A stretch of DNA of 64,000 nt from a virus (taxonomy: Duplodnaviria; Heunggongvirae; Uroviricota; Caudoviricetes), in the IMG/VR virus record IMGVR_UViG_3300034691_000069. One strand, given 5' to 3'. A program made the position numbers and the translations under genes. The notes below the pieces were generated by a model. The model worked only from the letters and a program-made list of their open reading frames with translations, did not search any database and had not been told where the DNA came from. Positions 3,147 through 57,133 of the stretch are shown in pieces. Positions within the stretch are counted from its first letter, which is position 1; each line of letters begins with the position of its first letter.

Positions 3147-3488
3147 CTAGTCAGTAATTATTTTAGTGATTTCGCTCCTAGATACATAGGTGCGGATGTA
3201 ATGTGGAGGGTTATCATCATCAACAGATATACCATAAACGGTATAAAGCAAAGATCCACTATGGATATCAGTCACACGAAGTATTTTGCAAATTTGACCA
3301 ATAACAAGGCAAGATGAATTTTTGCCTATTGCCACTTTGTCATTTACTGAGATCATTTTTTTTGCCTCAACCGTTGTGTGTTGATTAGGGGTTAATGCGG
3401 TATTCGAGGCTATTACGGAATTCCAGATCAGAACCAGAAACAGTAATCCAACCCACAACGGTTTCAGTATTGACTTGAACTTCACCAC
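3147..3488 (-). CDS. hypothetical protein (track ORF uses GTG start; true gene may begin at an internal ATG with GAGG RBS)
   Basis: ORF track; no RBS at annotated start; followed on minus strand by terminator at about 3075-3100. Confidence 0.35.
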   Translation of the reverse strand: MVKFKSILKPLWVGLLFLVLIWNSVIASNTALTPNQHTTVEAKKMISVNDKVAIGKNSSCLVIGQICKILRVTDIHSGSLLYTVYGISVDDDNPPHYIRTYVSRSEITKIITD

Positions 3489-3834: not shown

Positions 3835-3895
3835 AAATCACCGAATAGGTCATTAAGATAGATACACAGTATAACAAAATTAAGAATTTTAGACA

Positions 3896-3925
3896 ACAAA
3901 AAAGAGATCCGAAGATCTCTTTTTG
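3896..3925. terminator. bidirectional rho-independent terminator (agagatcCGAAgatctct flanked by A-run and T-run)
   Basis: second copy of the conserved hairpin; flanked by runs on both sides. Confidence 0.55.
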
Positions 3926-4063
3926 TTATTGCTTCCCTTTGGGTGTATACAGCGTTTCGATTCCACTGTATGCCCGCTGGAATTGTTGCGAGGTCAACAT
4001 CACCTACTAAAGCCCGAGGAGGACGCTAATAATATAACAAGAAGCTTGAGATGTCAACAAATT

Positions 4064-10187: not shown

Positions 10188-11054
10188 ATGAAAAAAACAT
10201 TACTATCATTAACGATGGCATTAGCTGGCGGCATAACACAAGCTGAATATGTTGTTAAATTTAACTTAGATGAACCTGTAAGATTTGCCAGTTGGGCTGC
10301 AAATTCTCCATTGTATGGCGATTGGGAAAACACAGGAAGTGTGCATTCATGTCTAAATTGGAGTCCTGCTGTTTCTGCAATAACCATTGGAAATACGTTC
10401 ACACAAACGGCAAACGATTGTAAGCAAGATCAAATAAGATCAGTCCAAGATCGAGAAATTGATAATGTTTCAGGCAGTATTCGTAACATTGGAAATCCTT
10501 ATAATGAATCTCAAAGTATTAACACAACTCAAACACGAAGTGCTGTAGGCACATTAGAAACGTGGGTAGCGATTGCTGCTGATGTCACAACATGGGTTAA
10601 CAGTGGGGGTGTAACAAGCTGCACGAACTGGAGTCCAGCCACATCAACGGTCACATCTGGTCAATCATTCACACAAACTGCCACAGATTGTCAGCAACCA
10701 CAAACTCGCAATAAACAAAATCGTGAGCAAGAAACAACCACACAAGCAATCAGAAACGTGGGTTCAGTTATTATCGAAAACCAATCAATTGCTGCTACTT
10801 CAACGAGAACAAGCGTTGGAACGAAACCAGCTACAGTATGTAACTTCGCATGGGGTTCTTATGAATGGGGTTATCAAGAAGATGAAGGTTACATTACAGA
10901 ATTAACTGTTTTATGGCAAGGTAATATTGTATATAGAAATTATGTCAATCCAGACTACCTAACTAACTATCCAGATGTAAGAGGAACTGATGGTAAACTA
11001 TATAGACGTGGGCCGTATCAGTCAGGCGGATATCAAGTTTGCCAAGTTAACTAA
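10188..11054 (+). CDS. secreted protein with three Cys-containing repeat modules (C.NWSPA.S..T.G..FTQTA.DC.Q.Q.R..Q.RE...IRN.G)
   Basis: signal peptide; internal triplication; own promoter and terminator; member of a 4-gene family in this window. Confidence 0.6.
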   Translation: MKKTLLSLTMALAGGITQAEYVVKFNLDEPVRFASWAANSPLYGDWENTGSVHSCLNWSPAVSAITIGNTFTQTANDCKQDQIRSVQDREIDNVSGSIRNIGNPYNESQSINTTQTRSAVGTLETWVAIAADVTTWVNSGGVTSCTNWSPATSTVTSGQSFTQTATDCQQPQTRNKQNREQETTTQAIRNVGSVIIENQSIAATSTRTSVGTKPATVCNFAWGSYEWGYQEDEGYITELTVLWQGNIVYRNYVNPDYLTNYPDVRGTDGKLYRRGPYQSGGYQVCQVN

Positions 11055-15081: not shown

Positions 15082-15273
15082 TTATTCGGATTTTTGTTTG
15101 TCGAGAGCTTCTTTTGCATCCATTTCTTCGGCCATACGATCATAGACATCAGCATCTTGATCACCACAACGGCAAATGCAATGAATCACTTCATGAGCCT
15201 CGATCTGAGTGTTACATCCGGGGCAGATACCAAATACTTCTTTAACTGGATTAGGGTTCGGGGCGAGTGGCAT
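15082..15273 (-). CDS. small zinc-ribbon protein (CPGC...HCICRC)
   Basis: ORF track; Cys/His cluster. Confidence 0.5.
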   Translation of the reverse strand: MPLAPNPNPVKEVFGICPGCNTQIEAHEVIHCICRCGDQDADVYDRMAEEMDAKEALDKQKSE

Positions 15274-15422
15274 AATGATAATTCTCCGTTGTTTGAAGTG
15301 TCTATTATAGCACTTTCGGCCAAGATAGACAATGAAAACTTTCCAAAATCAGCCACTTGCAATCAAAAATAACAGGAGTATACTTATAAATTAGATAGCA
15401 AGCTAACAATATAAAAGGTGAT

Positions 15423-15584
15423 ATGATGAAGAAAGAAAACGTGAAAAAAGAAATGACTGGATTGGTTTTAAGCGTGTTTATGGGGTTATTTGGCACTGGT
15501 GTTATGGCCGAAGACAACTCGAAAACAAGTGATATAAAAAGCGAAGCGACCACTCAGATAGATTCTAAAAAGCTTCAAAAGTAA
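15423..15584 (+). CDS. small secreted peptide about 53 aa (signal peptide then EDNSKTSDIKSEATTQIDSKKLQK)
   Basis: ATG with AAGGTG RBS; signal-peptide-like hydrophobic core; plus-strand island; below track cutoff. Confidence 0.45.
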   Translation: MMKKENVKKEMTGLVLSVFMGLFGTGVMAEDNSKTSDIKSEATTQIDSKKLQK

Positions 15585-15594
15585 TAGAAAAATC

Positions 15595-15623
15595 TTGTTT
15601 TTGATTTAAATATTAGGTATAAT
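15595..15623 (+). promoter_or_regulatory. plus-strand promoter ending in GGTATAATAGCCTCAC (14-mer shared with promoter at 40485-40500)
   Basis: TATAAT with upstream TTGTTT; transcript 5' end predicted inside a short hairpin agcctcacaaaccaaagaggct. Confidence 0.5.
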
Positions 15624-15653
15624 AGCCTCACAAACCAAAGAGGCTTTAATATC

Positions 15654-15863
15654 ATGGCAAAGAATCAACTGAACGAACATCCGGTAACAGAACAGATGTT
15701 GGCAGGTTTTGAAGTAGGCCAACCGATTGCCCGCTATTGCTTTTTCGTTAACCTGACCTTTAAAGGCATTGTAGACGGTGAAGTAATTATTGCCGATTGC
15801 AATGGTGATACCAAGAAACATCCGAAATGGCTCTTTTTGAAGCACGCCCGAGTTGCTAAGTAG
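15654..15863 (+). CDS. hypothetical protein (69 aa)
   Basis: ORF track; own promoter; terminator aaaaggcccgcagaagcgggcttttt at 15880-15908. Confidence 0.55.
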   Translation: MAKNQLNEHPVTEQMLAGFEVGQPIARYCFFVNLTFKGIVDGEVIIADCNGDTKKHPKWLFLKHARVAK

Positions 15864-15879
15864 TTTTTCCAACAGTAAT

Positions 15880-15908
15880 ATAAAAGGCCCGCAGAAGCGG
15901 GCTTTTTA
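15880..15908 (+). terminator. rho-independent terminator
   Basis: GC hairpin gcccgc-agaa-gcgggc + T-run. Confidence 0.6.
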
Positions 15909-15945
15909 TTGTCTTAAAAATTATGAATATTTTTGCAGAAAAAGC

Positions 15946-15974
15946 TTGTGCTCATCAGTAGTGTTTGGTATTAT
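15946..15974 (+). promoter_or_regulatory. sigma70 promoter TTGTGC-17-(TG)TATTAT driving non-coding unit
   Basis: good -35/-10 with extended TG; no ORF of significance downstream before terminator at 16133-16160. Confidence 0.5.
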
Positions 15975-15980
15975 AGCTGT

Positions 15981-16160
15981 GGAGATGCGGGATGAGAAAA
16001 AACTCATCTTTCAGGGTTGATGTTTAGCATCCGATGACCATTCAGAGGCTCTGCCGACATGGTAGCTCGTCATACGCTGGTGATGTATGATGGAAAACCG
16101 CACCGCATAAAAGGAGTCCAATCTTCTTTTTGGGAGAGGCTAAATGCCTCTTTTTTTTCG
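15981..16160 (+). ncRNA. candidate sRNA (about 180 nt, promoter- and terminator-bounded, multiple internal hairpins)
   Basis: unit between strong promoter and hairpin(gagaggc-taaat-gcctctt)+T8 terminator; only 11-38 codon ORFs inside, longest runs through the terminator. Confidence 0.4.
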
Positions 16161-16211
16161 TCTATGAAAAGCTAATAAGCATAAAAAAAGCCACACATAT
16201 GGCCTTTTGTT

Positions 16212-16985
16212 TTATGGTAATTGTGAATAATATCTATCAGGATTAATTGACTCAATCAGGTAAATAAACTCTTTTTTACTAGCAATATCACTGGCTTTAA
16301 ATTCAATCAGAAGATTGTCATAAAAATGTTTGTAGTCAGAAACTGATATGAAACGTGTATTATCACTAGTCATTGCCTTGAAAGCTTCCACTGATTTAGG
16401 TAATGGTAATAGATTGATAACTTCACCTATCTTACTATTCCACTTAAAATCCATTTTTTTAATACTATCCATATCATTAGTTATCTTTTTCAATGAGGCA
16501 TAATCATGAGTAGTTAAAGCCTTTGAAAATTGTAATCCAATATCTGATTTTGAAAAAGTTGGATTAGCCAACACTAATTTTTCATAAAGTTCACTAATCG
16601 GCTGATACATGTATTCATCTGTATTCTGATAATTATAAACAAAGAAAACTGCTGGTATCAAGGAAATTGTAGTCATGAATAGTGATTTTTTTAAATTATC
16701 ACGTTTAATCCAAGATAAAACAGTTGCGAGTGTGAATGCAAAATAAGTAAAGAAAAACATTAATGCCATGATGTTGAATGAATAGTCCCCCGGTTGAAAC
16801 AAATTAGCATACGTGTAACCATCACTAATAGCTATTTTATGATTAATCATGTTCATTACAGTCAGTGTTATATAATAGAGTGCCAATGGCACTAAAACAA
16901 TTGACACTAGCACTGCAATTAATTTTTGAACAAGTGTAAATTCAACATTTCTTTGCCCCGTAAGGTCAGATTTATGCTCAGACAT
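16212..16985 (-). CDS. multi-pass inner-membrane protein (4-6 TM helices)
   Basis: ORF track; several hydrophobic helices. Confidence 0.55.
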   Translation of the reverse strand: MSEHKSDLTGQRNVEFTLVQKLIAVLVSIVLVPLALYYITLTVMNMINHKIAISDGYTYANLFQPGDYSFNIMALMFFFTYFAFTLATVLSWIKRDNLKKSLFMTTISLIPAVFFVYNYQNTDEYMYQPISELYEKLVLANPTFSKSDIGLQFSKALTTHDYASLKKITNDMDSIKKMDFKWNSKIGEVINLLPLPKSVEAFKAMTSDNTRFISVSDYKHFYDNLLIEFKASDIASKKEFIYLIESINPDRYYSQLP

Positions 16986-31124: not shown

Positions 31125-32246
31125 TTACTCGGGGATAGGCACTTGTTTACGAGCAAACACCATGATAGCGGCTTGTTTGTAATCAATTTCATCACCCGAA
31201 AACTTGCTCATCAACACCGACAGAAGCAATGGAGCCACTTCTTTGGCTTTACGAGCGTAATCGCCACGTTCCAAACCTTTATGCTCATCGTAGAAGCTGT
31301 CAACCGTGCGAACAAGGTAATGGTAGCTTTTACGGGCGTAGTCTTCGACTTCATCCAAGCGAGCCAGAATTTCAGCCAGTGGGAAATTATCGCTGTGTGT
31401 CCGGTAGTGATACAACGAACGGATTTCATCCAGAATTTCATGAAGGGTTGCTTCATAAATAACCTGACGTTCCTTCGAACGATCCTGAATGTTGACCACT
31501 GCCGACATTTTCAGGTAAGGAATGGTCTTGACCTTATACATGTCAGGGCCGATTTCAATCACATAACCTTCGATATCGGGGTCATTCACGTTGATTTCAT
31601 TAACGGGAATACGCTTCACCAGATGGGCAGCAATGACCGGATATTCTGCGGCAAATTCTGCCGAACGAATGTCCACATAAGCCCCTGTGTTCATGTCGCG
31701 GGCTTTCAACACATGAACTTCGTAGGTAGTGTATTCGATGAAAACACGGTTTTTCGGCGTGGTCAGTTCCAAGTCAACCGAAACACCTGTGCGGGTCAGC
31801 CGTTCAACGTCTGCGTGCAATTCTGGACTGATAGACTGTTCAACAAGGCCGTAATCAGCAAACGTAGGCTTCTTTTTACTCTTGTAGTAAAGAGTATCAT
31901 TGATCGGAGAAATATAGCTGGTGAGCAACGAGCCATCGGGTTTCAGATAAGCATGGTCGGCTTCTTCTGGCTTCACCTTTTGCGTTTCAGGGGTTTCGCC
32001 CAAGGAAAAGAATTTCTGCATTGGCAATGCCACCAGCATTGGCTCAGAACCGCCCATATAGAACATGACACCACGGCAATCCTTAGCACCCGGAAGTTTG
32101 AATTCGGAATGCTTTGGAATGTCATAGTTGAAGACACGGTAAGTCCCGCCGTCTACCGCCGAGATTTCATCACGGTATTTGAAAGACCCCGGATTAGTCA
32201 CCAGCAGGTGCATCAGTTGGGCATACAGTTCTTGTTGATAAGTCAT
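31125..32246 (-). CDS. rnlA: RNA ligase 1 (T4 gp63/Rnl1 homolog); start taken at second Met (GGAG RBS)
   Basis: similarity to T4 Rnl1 including YR(V/I)F.Y...LP...CRG(V/I)MF, nucleotidyltransferase motif I KPDGSL and motif IV EGYVI; antisense 373-aa track ORF is a shadow. Confidence 0.8.
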   Translation of the reverse strand: MTYQQELYAQLMHLLVTNPGSFKYRDEISAVDGGTYRVFNYDIPKHSEFKLPGAKDCRGVMFYMGGSEPMLVALPMQKFFSLGETPETQKVKPEEADHAYLKPDGSLLTSYISPINDTLYYKSKKKPTFADYGLVEQSISPELHADVERLTRTGVSVDLELTTPKNRVFIEYTTYEVHVLKARDMNTGAYVDIRSAEFAAEYPVIAAHLVKRIPVNEINVNDPDIEGYVIEIGPDMYKVKTIPYLKMSAVVNIQDRSKERQVIYEATLHEILDEIRSLYHYRTHSDNFPLAEILARLDEVEDYARKSYHYLVRTVDSFYDEHKGLERGDYARKAKEVAPLLLSVLMSKFSGDEIDYKQAAIMVFARKQVPIPE

Positions 32247-32302
32247 GTGAATCTCCATGATTAAATTGTCTGAATCTATTATATCAAAAACTGATTTTTA
32301 AT

Positions 32303-33216: not shown

Positions 33217-34338
33217 TTAAACGGGAGCGGACAAGTCGCCAAGCTCAATTTGTTCCAACGACCAATCAACCAGATGGTTTTTAGAGTAGTGATACAGGTA
33301 GTCGTTTTTGTGACCACGAATTGCCCCCATAACAAAACCAAAGTGTTTGTGGCCTTTGAGTTGGATTGCTGCAGTTTTCACGTCAACACCTTGGAATGCA
33401 GCAGCAATATCATCAACCTCTTTCGACAACGCTTCAATCGAAGCTTTGATAGCGTCATTGATACGATAAATTTCACTCAAATCAGCCGTTGGCGAGTTTA
33501 GCGACAAATAAGCAATGTAATCATCAAGTTTTTCTTCGACCACCAAACGAGCAATATCACGTTCACGAACAAAGCTAACCGCATGATGGAGATTCATATA
33601 CCATTTGGTTTTGATTTTGATCATGTTACCGTTAACGAATTGAATAACATAGCCTTCAATCCCTTCAACCGTGTTCAGCGACTTCAAAAGGGAAGCCAAA
33701 TCAAATTCTTCACCAAACAGTGGCTTGTTAACAGGAATATCAAACAACAACGCCAGTTGGTCTTTTTCAGCAGGCATTAAGTAATCGCCTGTGATGTTGT
33801 GACGAACATGAAGCAATGTCATGTTGTCTTCGTCATAACGCAAAACGATACGATGCTTTGGCGAAGTGAATTCAAAAATTGGCGTCAGTTGGGCCTGAGA
33901 GCAATATTTGGTGAACTCGTAGTATTTCTGGTTACGAGAGACAAAGCCTTCTGCCGAAACAGCCACATCCGATTTGAAAGACTTCTTGGACTTAGCAAAG
34001 AATTCGCCTTTGAACAGACCTGTGGTAATCATGGAGCCATCCATTTTATCAAACCCGGCAACCATAGTGTTCCAATCCAAAACGGCTGGCTGGACTTCTG
34101 CACGCTCTGCCAAGTTGAAGAATTTGTGCAATGGACGCGACAGTATTTTACCGTTGTCGTCAAAGGTAATACCGCGAGCTTCCTTTTCAACCGGAGTGTT
34201 GAAAGAGTCACCGTTGCTGATGTTGTAGCAAACGATGTCGGCACCGTTATCCTGTTTGTTAACAGAAATATAGGCACGGTCTTTGATATGAGGAATCATA
34301 TCATCAAGGGTTTCAATACGGGGGAAGATGCTGGACAT
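33217..34338 (-). CDS. second Rnl1-family RNA ligase (paralog of rnlA, diverged)
   Basis: EARGITFDDNGKILSRPLHKFFNL (cf. T4 Rnl1 ECRGIMFEMDG...RPMEKFFNL), motif I KMDGSM, motif IV GIEGYVIQF...IKIKTKWY. Confidence 0.7.
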   Translation of the reverse strand: MSSIFPRIETLDDMIPHIKDRAYISVNKQDNGADIVCYNISNGDSFNTPVEKEARGITFDDNGKILSRPLHKFFNLAERAEVQPAVLDWNTMVAGFDKMDGSMITTGLFKGEFFAKSKKSFKSDVAVSAEGFVSRNQKYYEFTKYCSQAQLTPIFEFTSPKHRIVLRYDEDNMTLLHVRHNITGDYLMPAEKDQLALLFDIPVNKPLFGEEFDLASLLKSLNTVEGIEGYVIQFVNGNMIKIKTKWYMNLHHAVSFVRERDIARLVVEEKLDDYIAYLSLNSPTADLSEIYRINDAIKASIEALSKEVDDIAAAFQGVDVKTAAIQLKGHKHFGFVMGAIRGHKNDYLYHYSKNHLVDWSLEQIELGDLSAPV

Positions 34339-37539: not shown

Positions 37540-37648
37540 GTGTGTATCCTCTTTAATTAGAAGACTATACTATCAAAAAACTGAAAAATAAGCAACCATT
37601 AAAACAAAAAACCTAGCCGAAGCTAGGTCTTTAATTGTATTAACAAAA

Positions 37649-38143
37649 TCAATCGAGCAGCAGGTCAGGATAAGCCTTAGTAATATTGGCTTTCAAACCA
37701 CGCTCAATCTCAGCAGCTTTTCGGAGAATATCTTTAACTTCGGCAAGCTGACGGAAGGCTTCTTGCATTTCTGGATTAGCAGCCGCTTCTTCACGGGACT
37801 TACGCATTGCAAGGATATTGCGGCCACTCCATTCCGATTGAACAGCTTCATGCAATGGATAATACTCGGAATCGTTGTCCCACTGAAAACTGGCAGGATA
37901 TTCATTCTCATGATGACCAGCACGATCACGACCATCGGCGTCATAGCCATACGAATCGAAGCCATCATCATCGTAATCAGATTCAGGGTCTTTGCCATTA
38001 CCAAAACCACCACCATTCTTTTCATACCATGCTTGGTCTTGGCTGTAAGAAGTGCTGACAGTTGGAGAATATTTGCCTACGCCCATTTGTGTATCCTCTA
38101 TAATGTAGAGAGCAATGATATCAAAAAACTGAAAAATAGGCAA
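37649..38143 (-). CDS. paralog family D member 2
   Basis: as above. Confidence 0.55.
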   Translation of the reverse strand: MPIFQFFDIIALYIIEDTQMGVGKYSPTVSTSYSQDQAWYEKNGGGFGNGKDPESDYDDDGFDSYGYDADGRDRAGHHENEYPASFQWDNDSEYYPLHEAVQSEWSGRNILAMRKSREEAAANPEMQEAFRQLAEVKDILRKAAEIERGLKANITKAYPDLLLD

Positions 38144-38181
38144 ACATTAAAAGAAAGACCTAGCAGGAGCTAGATCTTTTT

Positions 38182-42863: not shown

Positions 42864-42958
42864 GATTGACCTCCAAAATTTGTTAAATTATACCATAAAA
42901 TTTAAAAAAGATAAACAAAAAACCCGCACGAAGCGGGCTTTTTTTAAGCTGTCTACTG

Positions 42959-51396: not shown

Positions 51397-51487
51397 TATT
51401 TATAGTGGATTTCAATGAGATTATTATACCTAAAAACCATATTTTAAGCAAGAAAAAAGAAGCCGAAGCCTCTTTTTATTTTTTCAA

Positions 51488-56870: not shown

Positions 56871-57063
56871 TATCGTATTCTCCTAATATTTAGTTGTTAA
56901 CAACACAATCTAGATTGCATTAGTTGCTTTAATTATAATGATATAAAGTATTAATAATTTACCACAGTGATGTAAAAAGTCAATAAATAATGAAAATGAT
57001 TATCATTACACAATGTAAAAAAGTAATAAAAAAACCACTCGAAAGTGGTCTTAGTGTATAAAG

Positions 57064-57133
57064 GCTGTATGATGGGATTCGAACCCACGACTACCGTTTT
57101 TCGACGGAGTTCTGCCGACTGAACTACAAACAG
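57064..57133 (-). tRNA. tRNA-like element with canonical acceptor/D/T arms but aberrant anticodon arm (3-4 bp stem, 6-8 nt loop UCGAAAAA); no encoded CCA
   Basis: minus-strand read CUGUUUG-UA-GUUC-AGUCGGCA-GAAC-...-GUGGG-UUCGAAU-CCCAU-CAUACAG; T-loop GGUUCGAAUCC perfect. Confidence 0.45.

Follow-up and report, generated by a model that had tools for sequence, protein, structure and literature searches.

A 64,000-nucleotide stretch of DNA from an uncultured huge-phage-like genome (IMG/VR virus record IMGVR_UViG_3300034691_000069; hereafter the window, meaning the whole stretch) was analysed around a short plus-strand island that carries a structured RNA gene. The window had a GC content of 38%, and its open reading frames (ORFs) lay nearly all on the minus strand. 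The minus-strand ORFs stopped at 15082-15273 and restarted at 16212-16985, and between them all credible features were on the plus strand, in agreement with a sequence-only reading that had described a strand flip of about 800 nt at this place. The island (15380-16165) consisted of three plus-strand units, each bounded by promoter and terminator signals: the gene of a 52-aa protein (ORF53/52, here ORF53), the gene of a 69-aa protein (ORF69) and a unit for an RNA. These are three autonomous early-type transcription units, two for genuine small proteins and the third for a discrete RNA. Every element that the sequence-only reading had placed in the island was found where it had been put or a few bases away, and all but one were conserved. 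The features of the RNA unit were the following.

15946-15974, plus strand: predicted RNA promoter, TTGTGC (15946-15951), a spacer of 17 nt and the extended -10 element TGgTATTAT (15966-15974)
15981-16162, plus strand: structured non-coding RNA of about 182 nt, with a predicted 5' end
15984-15988 with 16027-16031, plus strand: helix P1', GAUGC/GCAUC
15989-15996 with 16003-16010, plus strand: helix P2, GGGAUGAG/CUCAUCUU
16037-16041 with 16059-16063, plus strand: helix P3, ACCAU/AUGGU, with an inner helix CAGA/UCUG
16067-16076 with 16084-16093, plus strand: helix P4, 10 bp
16132-16162, plus strand: intrinsic terminator T2, hairpin GGGAGAGGC-UAAAU-GCCUCUUUU (16132-16154) in a U-run ending at 16162

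Relatives were collected with several queries. With the 69-aa protein a single 90% cluster was found, whose 15 members led to the syntenic loci L001-L023, a 20-mer from the RNA led to L024, L025 and L026, a profile search with ORF69 (22 clusters) led to L027-L032, and the 52-aa protein led to L033-L039. Exact-pattern scans of IMG/VR with window-specific 24-28-mers gave no match; of the 30 loci that fitted a two-block pattern in IMG/VR, one, L056, was genuine. All fetched relatives from the window's clade, L024 and L025 among them, had the island at the same syntenic position. The RNA was found in every relative whose sequence reached that position, and 16 distinct variants were collected. In the window itself the RNA was single-copy, with no paralogues.

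L056 is a 290-kb IMG/VR phage contig with two diverged tandem paralogues of the RNA, designated A and B. Copy A scored 57.8 bits with model R1 and 125 bits with R2, and copy B scored 32.5 bits with R1 and 91 bits with R2. Their promoters had the same layout as that of the window RNA (TTGCGT-17-TGaTACTAT and TTGATC-17-TGtTATTAT), and each copy had its own terminator, unrelated to T2. Both copies were co-oriented with the neighbouring genes, which were homologous (57-59% aa identity) to window genes at 54-60 kb, that is, to a different neighbourhood; a P-loop AAA_33 kinase gene lay downstream of the copies. No homologue of ORF53 or ORF69 was found in L056.

The third unit had been proposed to hold a promoter and a hairpin plus U8 terminator with no plausible ORF between them, and the comparison bore this out. 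The promoter hexamers and their spacing were kept in the relatives while the spacer sequence diverged, which is the signature of a real promoter. Terminator T2 was invariant in the window's clade, and the L056 copies had unrelated terminator hairpins. The 11-aa and 38-aa ORFs inside the RNA were frameshifted in L016 and in L012/L015, and the ORF from the AUG at 16059 varied from 16 to 48 aa across the relatives with inconsistent stops; the RNA therefore holds no conserved ORF.

Alignment of the variants showed that the 45-nt centre of the RNA (UAGCAUCCGAUGACCAUUCAGAGGCUCUGCCGACAUGGUAGCUC) was essentially invariant in the window's clade, with one base change each in L012 and L025. In comparison with L024 and L025, whose ORF69 was 67-71% identical with saturated synonymous sites (dS, the synonymous rate, about 1), the identity of the RNA centre was 98% and 82%, respectively, and that of the neighbouring segments was mostly 40-80%. 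In a 3-kb comparison with L024, identity peaked at the RNA centre. In L028, ORF69 was 61% identical and the RNA about 98%, with flanking segments at 94-100%; some of the identity is therefore owed to recombination between these mosaic genomes.

The comparative model showed a discrete RNA of about 150-185 nt with three hairpin domains (P1'/P2, P3 and P4) with invariant single-stranded linkers, followed by an intrinsic terminator; the conserved linkers were CGAUG, AGCUC and GGAA. Covariation was assessed on an alignment of related sequences in which the row of L056 copy B was aligned by hand. Among the window-clade variants, 99.7% of 598 cells were paired in the chosen fold, and 6 pairs were changed on both sides. 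None of 500 shuffles matched the covariation score, the number of double-changed cells or the percentage paired, and 2 matched the number of double-changed pairs. When the 3' partners were slid by 1-3 columns as a control, 36-58% of the cells were paired. The minimum free energy (MFE) z-score of the RNA was -2.47. With L056 A and B included, compensatory changes were found in all four helices. P1' changed at three positions (copy A, GUCGC/GCGAC; copy B, AAUGC/GCAUU); P3 changed at two positions, from ACCAU/AUGGU to ACCUC/GAGGU; and P4 varied at seven positions with pairing almost always retained. The core of the family reads 5' UUGS, P1' around P2, (C/G)GAUG, P3, AGCUC, P4 and GGNA, and the spacing across P3 was fixed (GAUGACC-N21-GGUAGCUC).

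The fold given by MFE and RNAalifold, which has a closing stem AUGCGG/CCGCAU and a local hairpin (columns 42-46 with 50-54), was rejected, and the fold with P1' (GAUGC/GCAUC) was chosen instead. It was 96.9% paired overall; its local hairpin was 85% paired and was broken by single substitutions in L001, L016, L025 and L028, and its closing stem was 93% paired and failed in L025 and in L056 copy A.

A promoter and a terminator of its own, the lack of a conserved ORF and a compensated structure mark the third unit, at the level of sequence comparison, as an independent non-coding RNA gene. By kind it is a predicted phage-encoded small non-coding RNA, and with its relatives it makes up a previously undescribed, covariation-supported family of structured RNAs in a huge-phage lineage. 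Searches of Rfam 15 at the gathering threshold found three tRNAs only in the whole window, and searches at E values up to 10 (15300-16300) and up to 1 (the L056 copies) gave sub-threshold, terminator-driven hits only. ARAGORN found no tRNA or tmRNA within the RNA unit.

The reading that we prefer, with a probability of roughly 0.55, is that the RNA is a stable folded molecule, made from an autonomous unit, which would act in trans and be recognised by a protein. The sigma-70-type promoters suggest that the host sigma-70 RNA polymerase would transcribe it, presumably early in infection. It would then serve as a protein-recognised scaffold, sponge or decoy rather than by long antisense pairing. 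Selection on the helices, the short linkers and the fixed 21-nt spacing favours recognition by a protein over seed pairing, as does the fact that the 3' linker and the terminator can be replaced, and the lack of an extended complementary target in the 64-kb window disfavours long antisense pairing. Since the RNA occurs in L056 without ORF53 and ORF69, it would work independently of these two proteins.

Several points weigh against this reading. For the RNA, promoter, 5' end and stability are all predicted. The case for protein binding is indirect, and short seed pairing with host mRNAs is an alternative to it. The covariation of P3 depends on one sequence, the hand-aligned copy B of L056. The genomes are mosaic and mostly close relatives, and the extreme identity may be due in part to recombination and not to selection. 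For the neighbouring ORF69, the fold is weakly predicted, with one of five models confident.

A classical base-pairing small RNA (sRNA) of the Hfq type or similar, in which a short accessible seed would alter the translation or stability of host or phage mRNAs and the hairpins would serve mainly for stability and chaperone binding, is an unlikely but serious explanation. A unit that stands alone between a sigma-70-type promoter and an intrinsic terminator ending in a U8 tail would suit it, as would the U-rich stretch directly upstream of T2 in the window's clade, and the invariant single-stranded linkers CGAUG and AGCUC could be seeds. What was conserved, however, was a structured core of about 110 nt with fixed spacing rather than one seed, and the U-rich 3' module and the terminator were not conserved in L025 or in the L056 copies. 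Complementarity of the RNA to the 64-kb window did not exceed 12-13 nt, which is the chance level, and no translation-initiation region stood out as a target in a duplex scan of the window. Conservation at the level of DNA, as a recombination linker, a protein-binding site or an origin, is very improbable. The mosaic genomes with their sharp switches from about 100% to about 50% identity are in its favour, and so are the many repeated terminator-promoter modules, which act as shufflers in T4-type phages (PMC2839356, PMC4122927), but compensatory double substitutions that keep Watson-Crick or GU pairs in four helices would not be expected of it. In addition, the promoter and the terminator lay on one strand in both lineages, and the block was not repeated elsewhere in the window.

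It is also very improbable that the RNA is a cis element, a riboswitch or attenuator which would gate read-through of T2 as antisense into the convergent minus-strand genes. No plus-strand gene lay downstream of the RNA in any relative, the next gene being convergent, and T2 was followed on the plus strand by a second hairpin and T-run. The 5' arm of T2 repeats the motif AGAGGCU of the RNA centre, so that alternative pairing with the 3' arm is conceivable, but the central AGAGGCU was lost in both L056 copies, whose terminators are unrelated. The L056 RNAs, moreover, were co-oriented with their neighbours, and each was followed by its own terminator and then a new promoter. Least credible is a small mRNA in which AGAGG, followed after 10 nt by the AUG at 16059, would direct the synthesis of a short peptide. 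Its Shine-Dalgarno (SD)-like motif and spacing are those of ORF69 (AGAGGCU-N8-AUGG), and the ORF was open from this AUG in all window-clade variants. Against it stand the length of 16-48 aa with frameshifts and inconsistent stops, the passage of the ORF through the terminator in several variants, substitutions that fall at second codon positions and are compensatory in the RNA, and the sequestration of both the SD and the AUG in the P3/P3a structure. In L056 the SD-like AGAGGCU was missing in copy A and the AUG was missing in copy B.

Further candidates were tried and rejected. A mimic of the translation-initiation region of ORF69, with which the RNA shares an identical AGAGGCU-N8-AUGG, was rejected at the family level by the L056 copies. 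Three of the six AGAGGCU copies of the window lay inside the island; a role of this clustering as a terminator/antiterminator or protein-site signal was rejected, as it was not conserved in the L056 copies. A type I toxin-antitoxin pair with ORF53 was also rejected: the RNA does not overlap ORF53, ORF53 was deleted in one lineage in which the RNA was kept, and the duplex of the RNA with the initiation region of ORF53 was among the weakest (-18.5 kcal/mol vs a mean of -28.3).

The folded, protein-recognised RNA that we favour was compared with known systems. T4 rnaC/rnaD (species 1 and 2 stable RNAs) and the sRNAs of virulent Pseudomonas phages are likewise discrete structured RNAs of 120-190 nt from large virulent-type phages. 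The function of rnaC/rnaD is likewise unassigned, and the window RNA stands beside a tRNA-like gene in some relatives. In the T4 record rnaC/rnaD lie directly alongside the tRNA genes. The two T4 RNAs are processed from the tRNA-cluster transcript, whereas the window RNA has its own promoter and terminator. Comparison of T4 68-76 kb with model R1, with filters off, revealed no homology in sequence or structure; the best overlap with rnaC had 5.2 bits (E 0.44). The pRNA of phi29 (RF00044) is similar in that it is a phage-encoded RNA of about 174 nt with an early promoter and multiple helices, in which structure is conserved above sequence. It belongs, however, to small phi29-like phages with protein-primed genomes; the window RNA had no Rfam match at E values up to 10, and nothing ties it to a packaging motor. 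CsrB/RsmZ, 6S RNA and the Y RNA-like YrlA, which sequester or bind proteins in the manner favoured here for the window RNA, also are multi-hairpin RNAs of 150-200 nt with conserved helices and short single-stranded motifs, but the window RNA has no GGA-in-loop array, no central-bubble rod, no tRNA-like module and no Rfam match.

The RNA could be the first member of a functional class that is new and confined to very large phages, although this is a tentative idea and rather doubtful. It might, for example, be the RNA subunit or the decoy in a ribonucleoprotein interaction of phage and host, either as a decoy against defence systems or by regulating RNA-repair enzymes or an RNA-binding protein of the host. 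If this were true, the RNA would be constrained more strongly than any protein gene beside it and duplicated in some lineages. Huge phages have come to light almost exclusively through metagenomes, and their non-coding RNAs have hardly been explored. A compact RNA with four covarying helices, conserved above the surrounding proteins, is an object that can be synthesised for probing, pull-downs and heterologous expression.

The other features of the island and its right boundary were the following.

15357-15384, plus strand: predicted sigma-70-type promoter upstream of ORF53, TTGCAA-16-TATACT, from a consensus scan
15426-15584, plus strand: ORF53/52, 52-aa protein, with the ribosome-binding site AAGGTG at 15415-15420
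15595-15623, plus strand: predicted ORF69 promoter, TTGTTT (-35, 15595-15600)-17-TATAAT (-10, 15618-15623), from reading of the sequence
15654-15863, plus strand: ORF69, 69-aa protein, with the ribosome-binding site AGAGG at 15639-15643
15886-15907, no strand assigned: terminator T1, GCCCGC-AGAA-GCGGGC with A-run and T-run flanks (hairpin 15887-15902, then T5)
16185-16208, minus strand: terminator of the convergent gene of a 257-aa membrane protein, the right boundary of the island (read on the plus strand, the second hairpin and T-run after T2)

ORF69 had been described as a 69-aa ORF with its own promoter and a strong terminator. It held up well, with a ratio of nonsynonymous to synonymous rates (dN/dS) of 0.07-0.24 and conserved signals. 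Every relative, even the distant L030 and L027, kept the TTG and the -10 hexamer of its promoter, as did homologues with an identity of 56-57%. Terminator T1, which is predicted to end the ORF53 and ORF69 transcripts and is bidirectional by sequence, was invariant in the relatives. A hairpin at the +1 of this unit (AGCCTC/GAGGCT), also described before, was present in the window; it was broken in L001, L016, L024, L025 and L028, and since most relatives lack it, it carries no weight.

No match to ORF69 was found in Pfam, PHROG, NCBIfam, PADLOC or PDB sequences. The profile search showed that its family consists of 22 clusters with members of 56-77 aa, none with a recorded Pfam domain. The confident one of the five AlphaFold models (pLDDT, the predicted local distance difference test score, 85.8) was a small beta-barrel, and the other models reached 41-49; Foldseek gave weak SH3/Tudor-like matches only. 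ORF69 is thus weakly predicted to be a small beta-barrel, which is a lead only. In the more distant phages L030 and L027, the ORF69 gene stood alone as a single plus-strand gene, without the RNA or the 52-aa gene. One member of the family, P0019 (145 aa), has the domain tandemly duplicated inside one protein.

The promoter of ORF53 lay back to back with the promoters of the minus-strand gene of a 63-aa protein, and the segment 15350-15400 was 86-98% identical in L024, L025 and L028. The sequence-only reading had given ORF53 as a 53-aa ORF (15423-15584) with an AAGGTG ribosome-binding site. The gene is real and the site is there; the first ATG (15423) is replaced by K, R or G in the relatives, however, so the start is at 15426 and the product has 52 aa. 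Comparison with L001, L003 and L012 gave 0 nonsynonymous and 5-6 synonymous changes. In comparison with L024 and L025, dN was 0.03 over the first 28 residues vs 0.26-0.33 in the tail. ORF53 had no significant match in Pfam, PHROG, NCBIfam or PADLOC, and its family (8 clusters) was confined to the window's phage clade. In the L016 lineage ORF53 was deleted with a 3' remnant left, and the remainder of the island was intact.

From a charged N-terminus the protein runs into the hydrophobic segment GLVLSVFMGLFGTG, which is invariant, and then into a (V/A)(M/I)A site; a variable linker joins this site to the tail KSEATTQIDxKK, which is conserved. Alignment of ORF53 showed that NVKKEMTGLVLSVFMGLFGTG was invariant and that the small-x-small site after it was maintained as VMA, AIA, VIA or AMA. 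By inspection, the protein has the parts of a signal peptide, with MKKENVKKEMT, then GLVLSVFMGLFGTG (mean Kyte-Doolittle hydropathy of the h-region 1.89), then VMA/AIA/VIA/AMA followed by E/D/G; the AXA-type site was retained in 12 sequences. The signal peptide proposed for this ORF by the sequence-only reading stands as far as the n-, h- and c-regions and the kept AXA site are concerned, and a Sec signal peptide is plausible. A membrane-anchored micro-protein is equally compatible with the sequence, as the hydrophobic segment was conserved far beyond the 'mature' tail.

The three units had also been taken for a moron, acquired as one cassette for regulation or for interaction with the host. 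The island does hold three plus-strand units, each with a promoter and a terminator independent of the others, and the third is non-coding; a single acquired cassette, including an arbitrium-like variant of it, is improbable. The small ORF with a signal-like N-terminus and a conserved AXA site would fit such a cassette, the three units were adjacent and co-oriented in all close relatives, and L056 also had a small signal-peptide-like ORF beside its RNA copies, but the peptide of L056 had no detectable similarity to ORF53. The GC content of the island (0.384) was that of a native segment (window 0.379), and the syntenic position was conserved across deep divergence with a distribution that was not sporadic. 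The parts were separable: ORF53 was deleted in the L016 lineage with the rest intact, ORF69 stood alone in L030 and L027, and the RNA occurred without ORF53 and ORF69 in L056. The arbitrium system of SPbeta-like phages (aimR-aimP-aimX) likewise has a small signal-peptide-bearing ORF near a non-coding RNA unit. The island differs from it in having separable components and no gene for an AimR-type TPR receptor, and no AimR-like receptor or larger regulator was found in or next to it; in ORF53 the most conserved part was the hydrophobic N-terminus rather than a C-terminal peptide alone. A promoter and a terminator for each unit are the norm in the window genome and so do not mark the island as special. 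Judged by its composition, synteny and separable parts, the island is native to the genome, a syntenic group of modules that can be separated, and the genome as a whole is built of such modules.

The small ORF of L056 (3214-3351, minus strand) lay between the two RNA paralogues. It encodes 36-45 aa with a signal-peptide-like N-terminus (MFFVRHSLLSLLAFGNLLNHSA / DSHSDGIYLDHWVL), and it had a perfect TTGACA-17-TATAAT promoter ahead and a terminator behind. The best tblastn E value in its comparison with ORF53 was 6.5.

A composite motif, consisting of a stem-loop terminator, a T-run and then TTGnnn-17-TATAAT, occurred in many minus-strand copies in the window. Examples were found at 2091-2167, 3853-3929, 37558-37632, 38106-38179, 42887-42943 and 51423-51479, and the families of the motif in the window were D3-D5, D8, D10 and D13-D17. 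Promoter-early stem-loop (PeSL)-type architecture has been described for the hyperplastic regions of T4-type phages, in which the repeated terminator-promoter modules mediate the shuffling of modules (PMC2839356, PMC4122927). Terminator-plus-promoter modules that are PeSL-like are the general architecture of the window genome. As in the PeSL cassettes, small ORFan genes each lie between a stem-loop terminator and an early promoter of the sigma-70 type (PMC2839356, PMC4122927), and modules were gained, lost and replaced between the relatives of the window. PeSL, in contrast, is an architecture around genes and has no structured RNA product. The junction from T1 to the RNA promoter is a looser form of the motif, and the RNA core is unrepeated. 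Apparently exotic 'islands' in genomes of this sort can be ordinary PeSL-like products, which helps in the annotation of other windows.

Recognisable genes of the window were three tRNA-type genes (Rfam 15 at the gathering threshold; ARAGORN), a NUDIX hydrolase and pentapeptide-repeat and DUF2807 proteins, and the remainder were mostly ORFans. Comparison of the window with 50,697 phage records gave DNA matches to tRNAs only, and no DNA similarity to known phages or plasmids was found. At 57063-57133 (minus strand), ARAGORN reported a tRNA-like gene with an abnormal anticodon loop ('tRNA-???', anticodon 'aa'). Genes of this kind with an abnormal anticodon loop were also reported at 10349-10422 (minus strand) of L001 and at 3348-3421 (minus strand) of L003. 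A different tRNA-like gene, with a promoter and a terminator of its own, was inserted after the ORF69 terminator and ahead of the RNA promoter in L001, in L003 and in relatives close to them; this insertion was absent from the window.

Apart from the NUDIX hydrolase, the neighbours of the island had no match in Pfam, PHROG, NCBIfam or PADLOC. The 63-aa protein (15082-15273, minus strand), divergent from ORF53, had cysteines in the pattern CPGC...HCICRC, which are suggestive of a zinc ribbon; it was 69-98% identical among the compared relatives and without a family match. The 257-aa predicted membrane protein (16212-16985, minus strand) was hypervariable, with 42-51% identity in L001, L016, L024 and L025. 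The DNA of its gene was about 30-78% identical to L028, where the flanking segments were 94-100% identical, and the sharp switches of identity along the alignment at this gene indicate mosaic recombination.

One relative, L026 (JAZBLF010000044.1, 672 bp), held the RNA and part of ORF69 and was binned in a 'Bacteroidota bacterium' metagenome-assembled genome. This assignment is probably a binning artefact; the sigma-70-type promoters and the SD sites of the island speak against a host from the Bacteroidota. Other relatives lay on very long metagenome contigs (L001, 1,851,360 bp; L024, 1,859,102 bp; L003, 834,842 bp; L025, 677,834 bp). L001 and L024 are diverged and both are about 1.85 Mb, with the island at different positions of the contig. 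These long contigs are candidates for phage replicons, prophages in small chromosomes or concatemers. The largest phage genome found in the literature was that of phage BF3 (841,704 bp, 55% GC; preprint), which is unrelated to the relatives, and the lineage that carries the RNA may have replicons of about 1.85 Mb, more than twice that size. If the contigs of 0.68-1.86 Mb with relatives are genuine phage replicons, the lineage itself is remarkable.

Two paralogous genes for T4 RnlA-like RNA ligases were found in the window at 31125-32258 and 33217-34338 (both minus strand), with about 1 kb between them. Their nearest homologues were in jumbo and T4-like phages of Ralstonia, Xanthomonas and Stenotrophomonas (34-42% identity), and the closest phage homologue was that of the Ralstonia jumbo phage RsoM2USA, with 42% identity.

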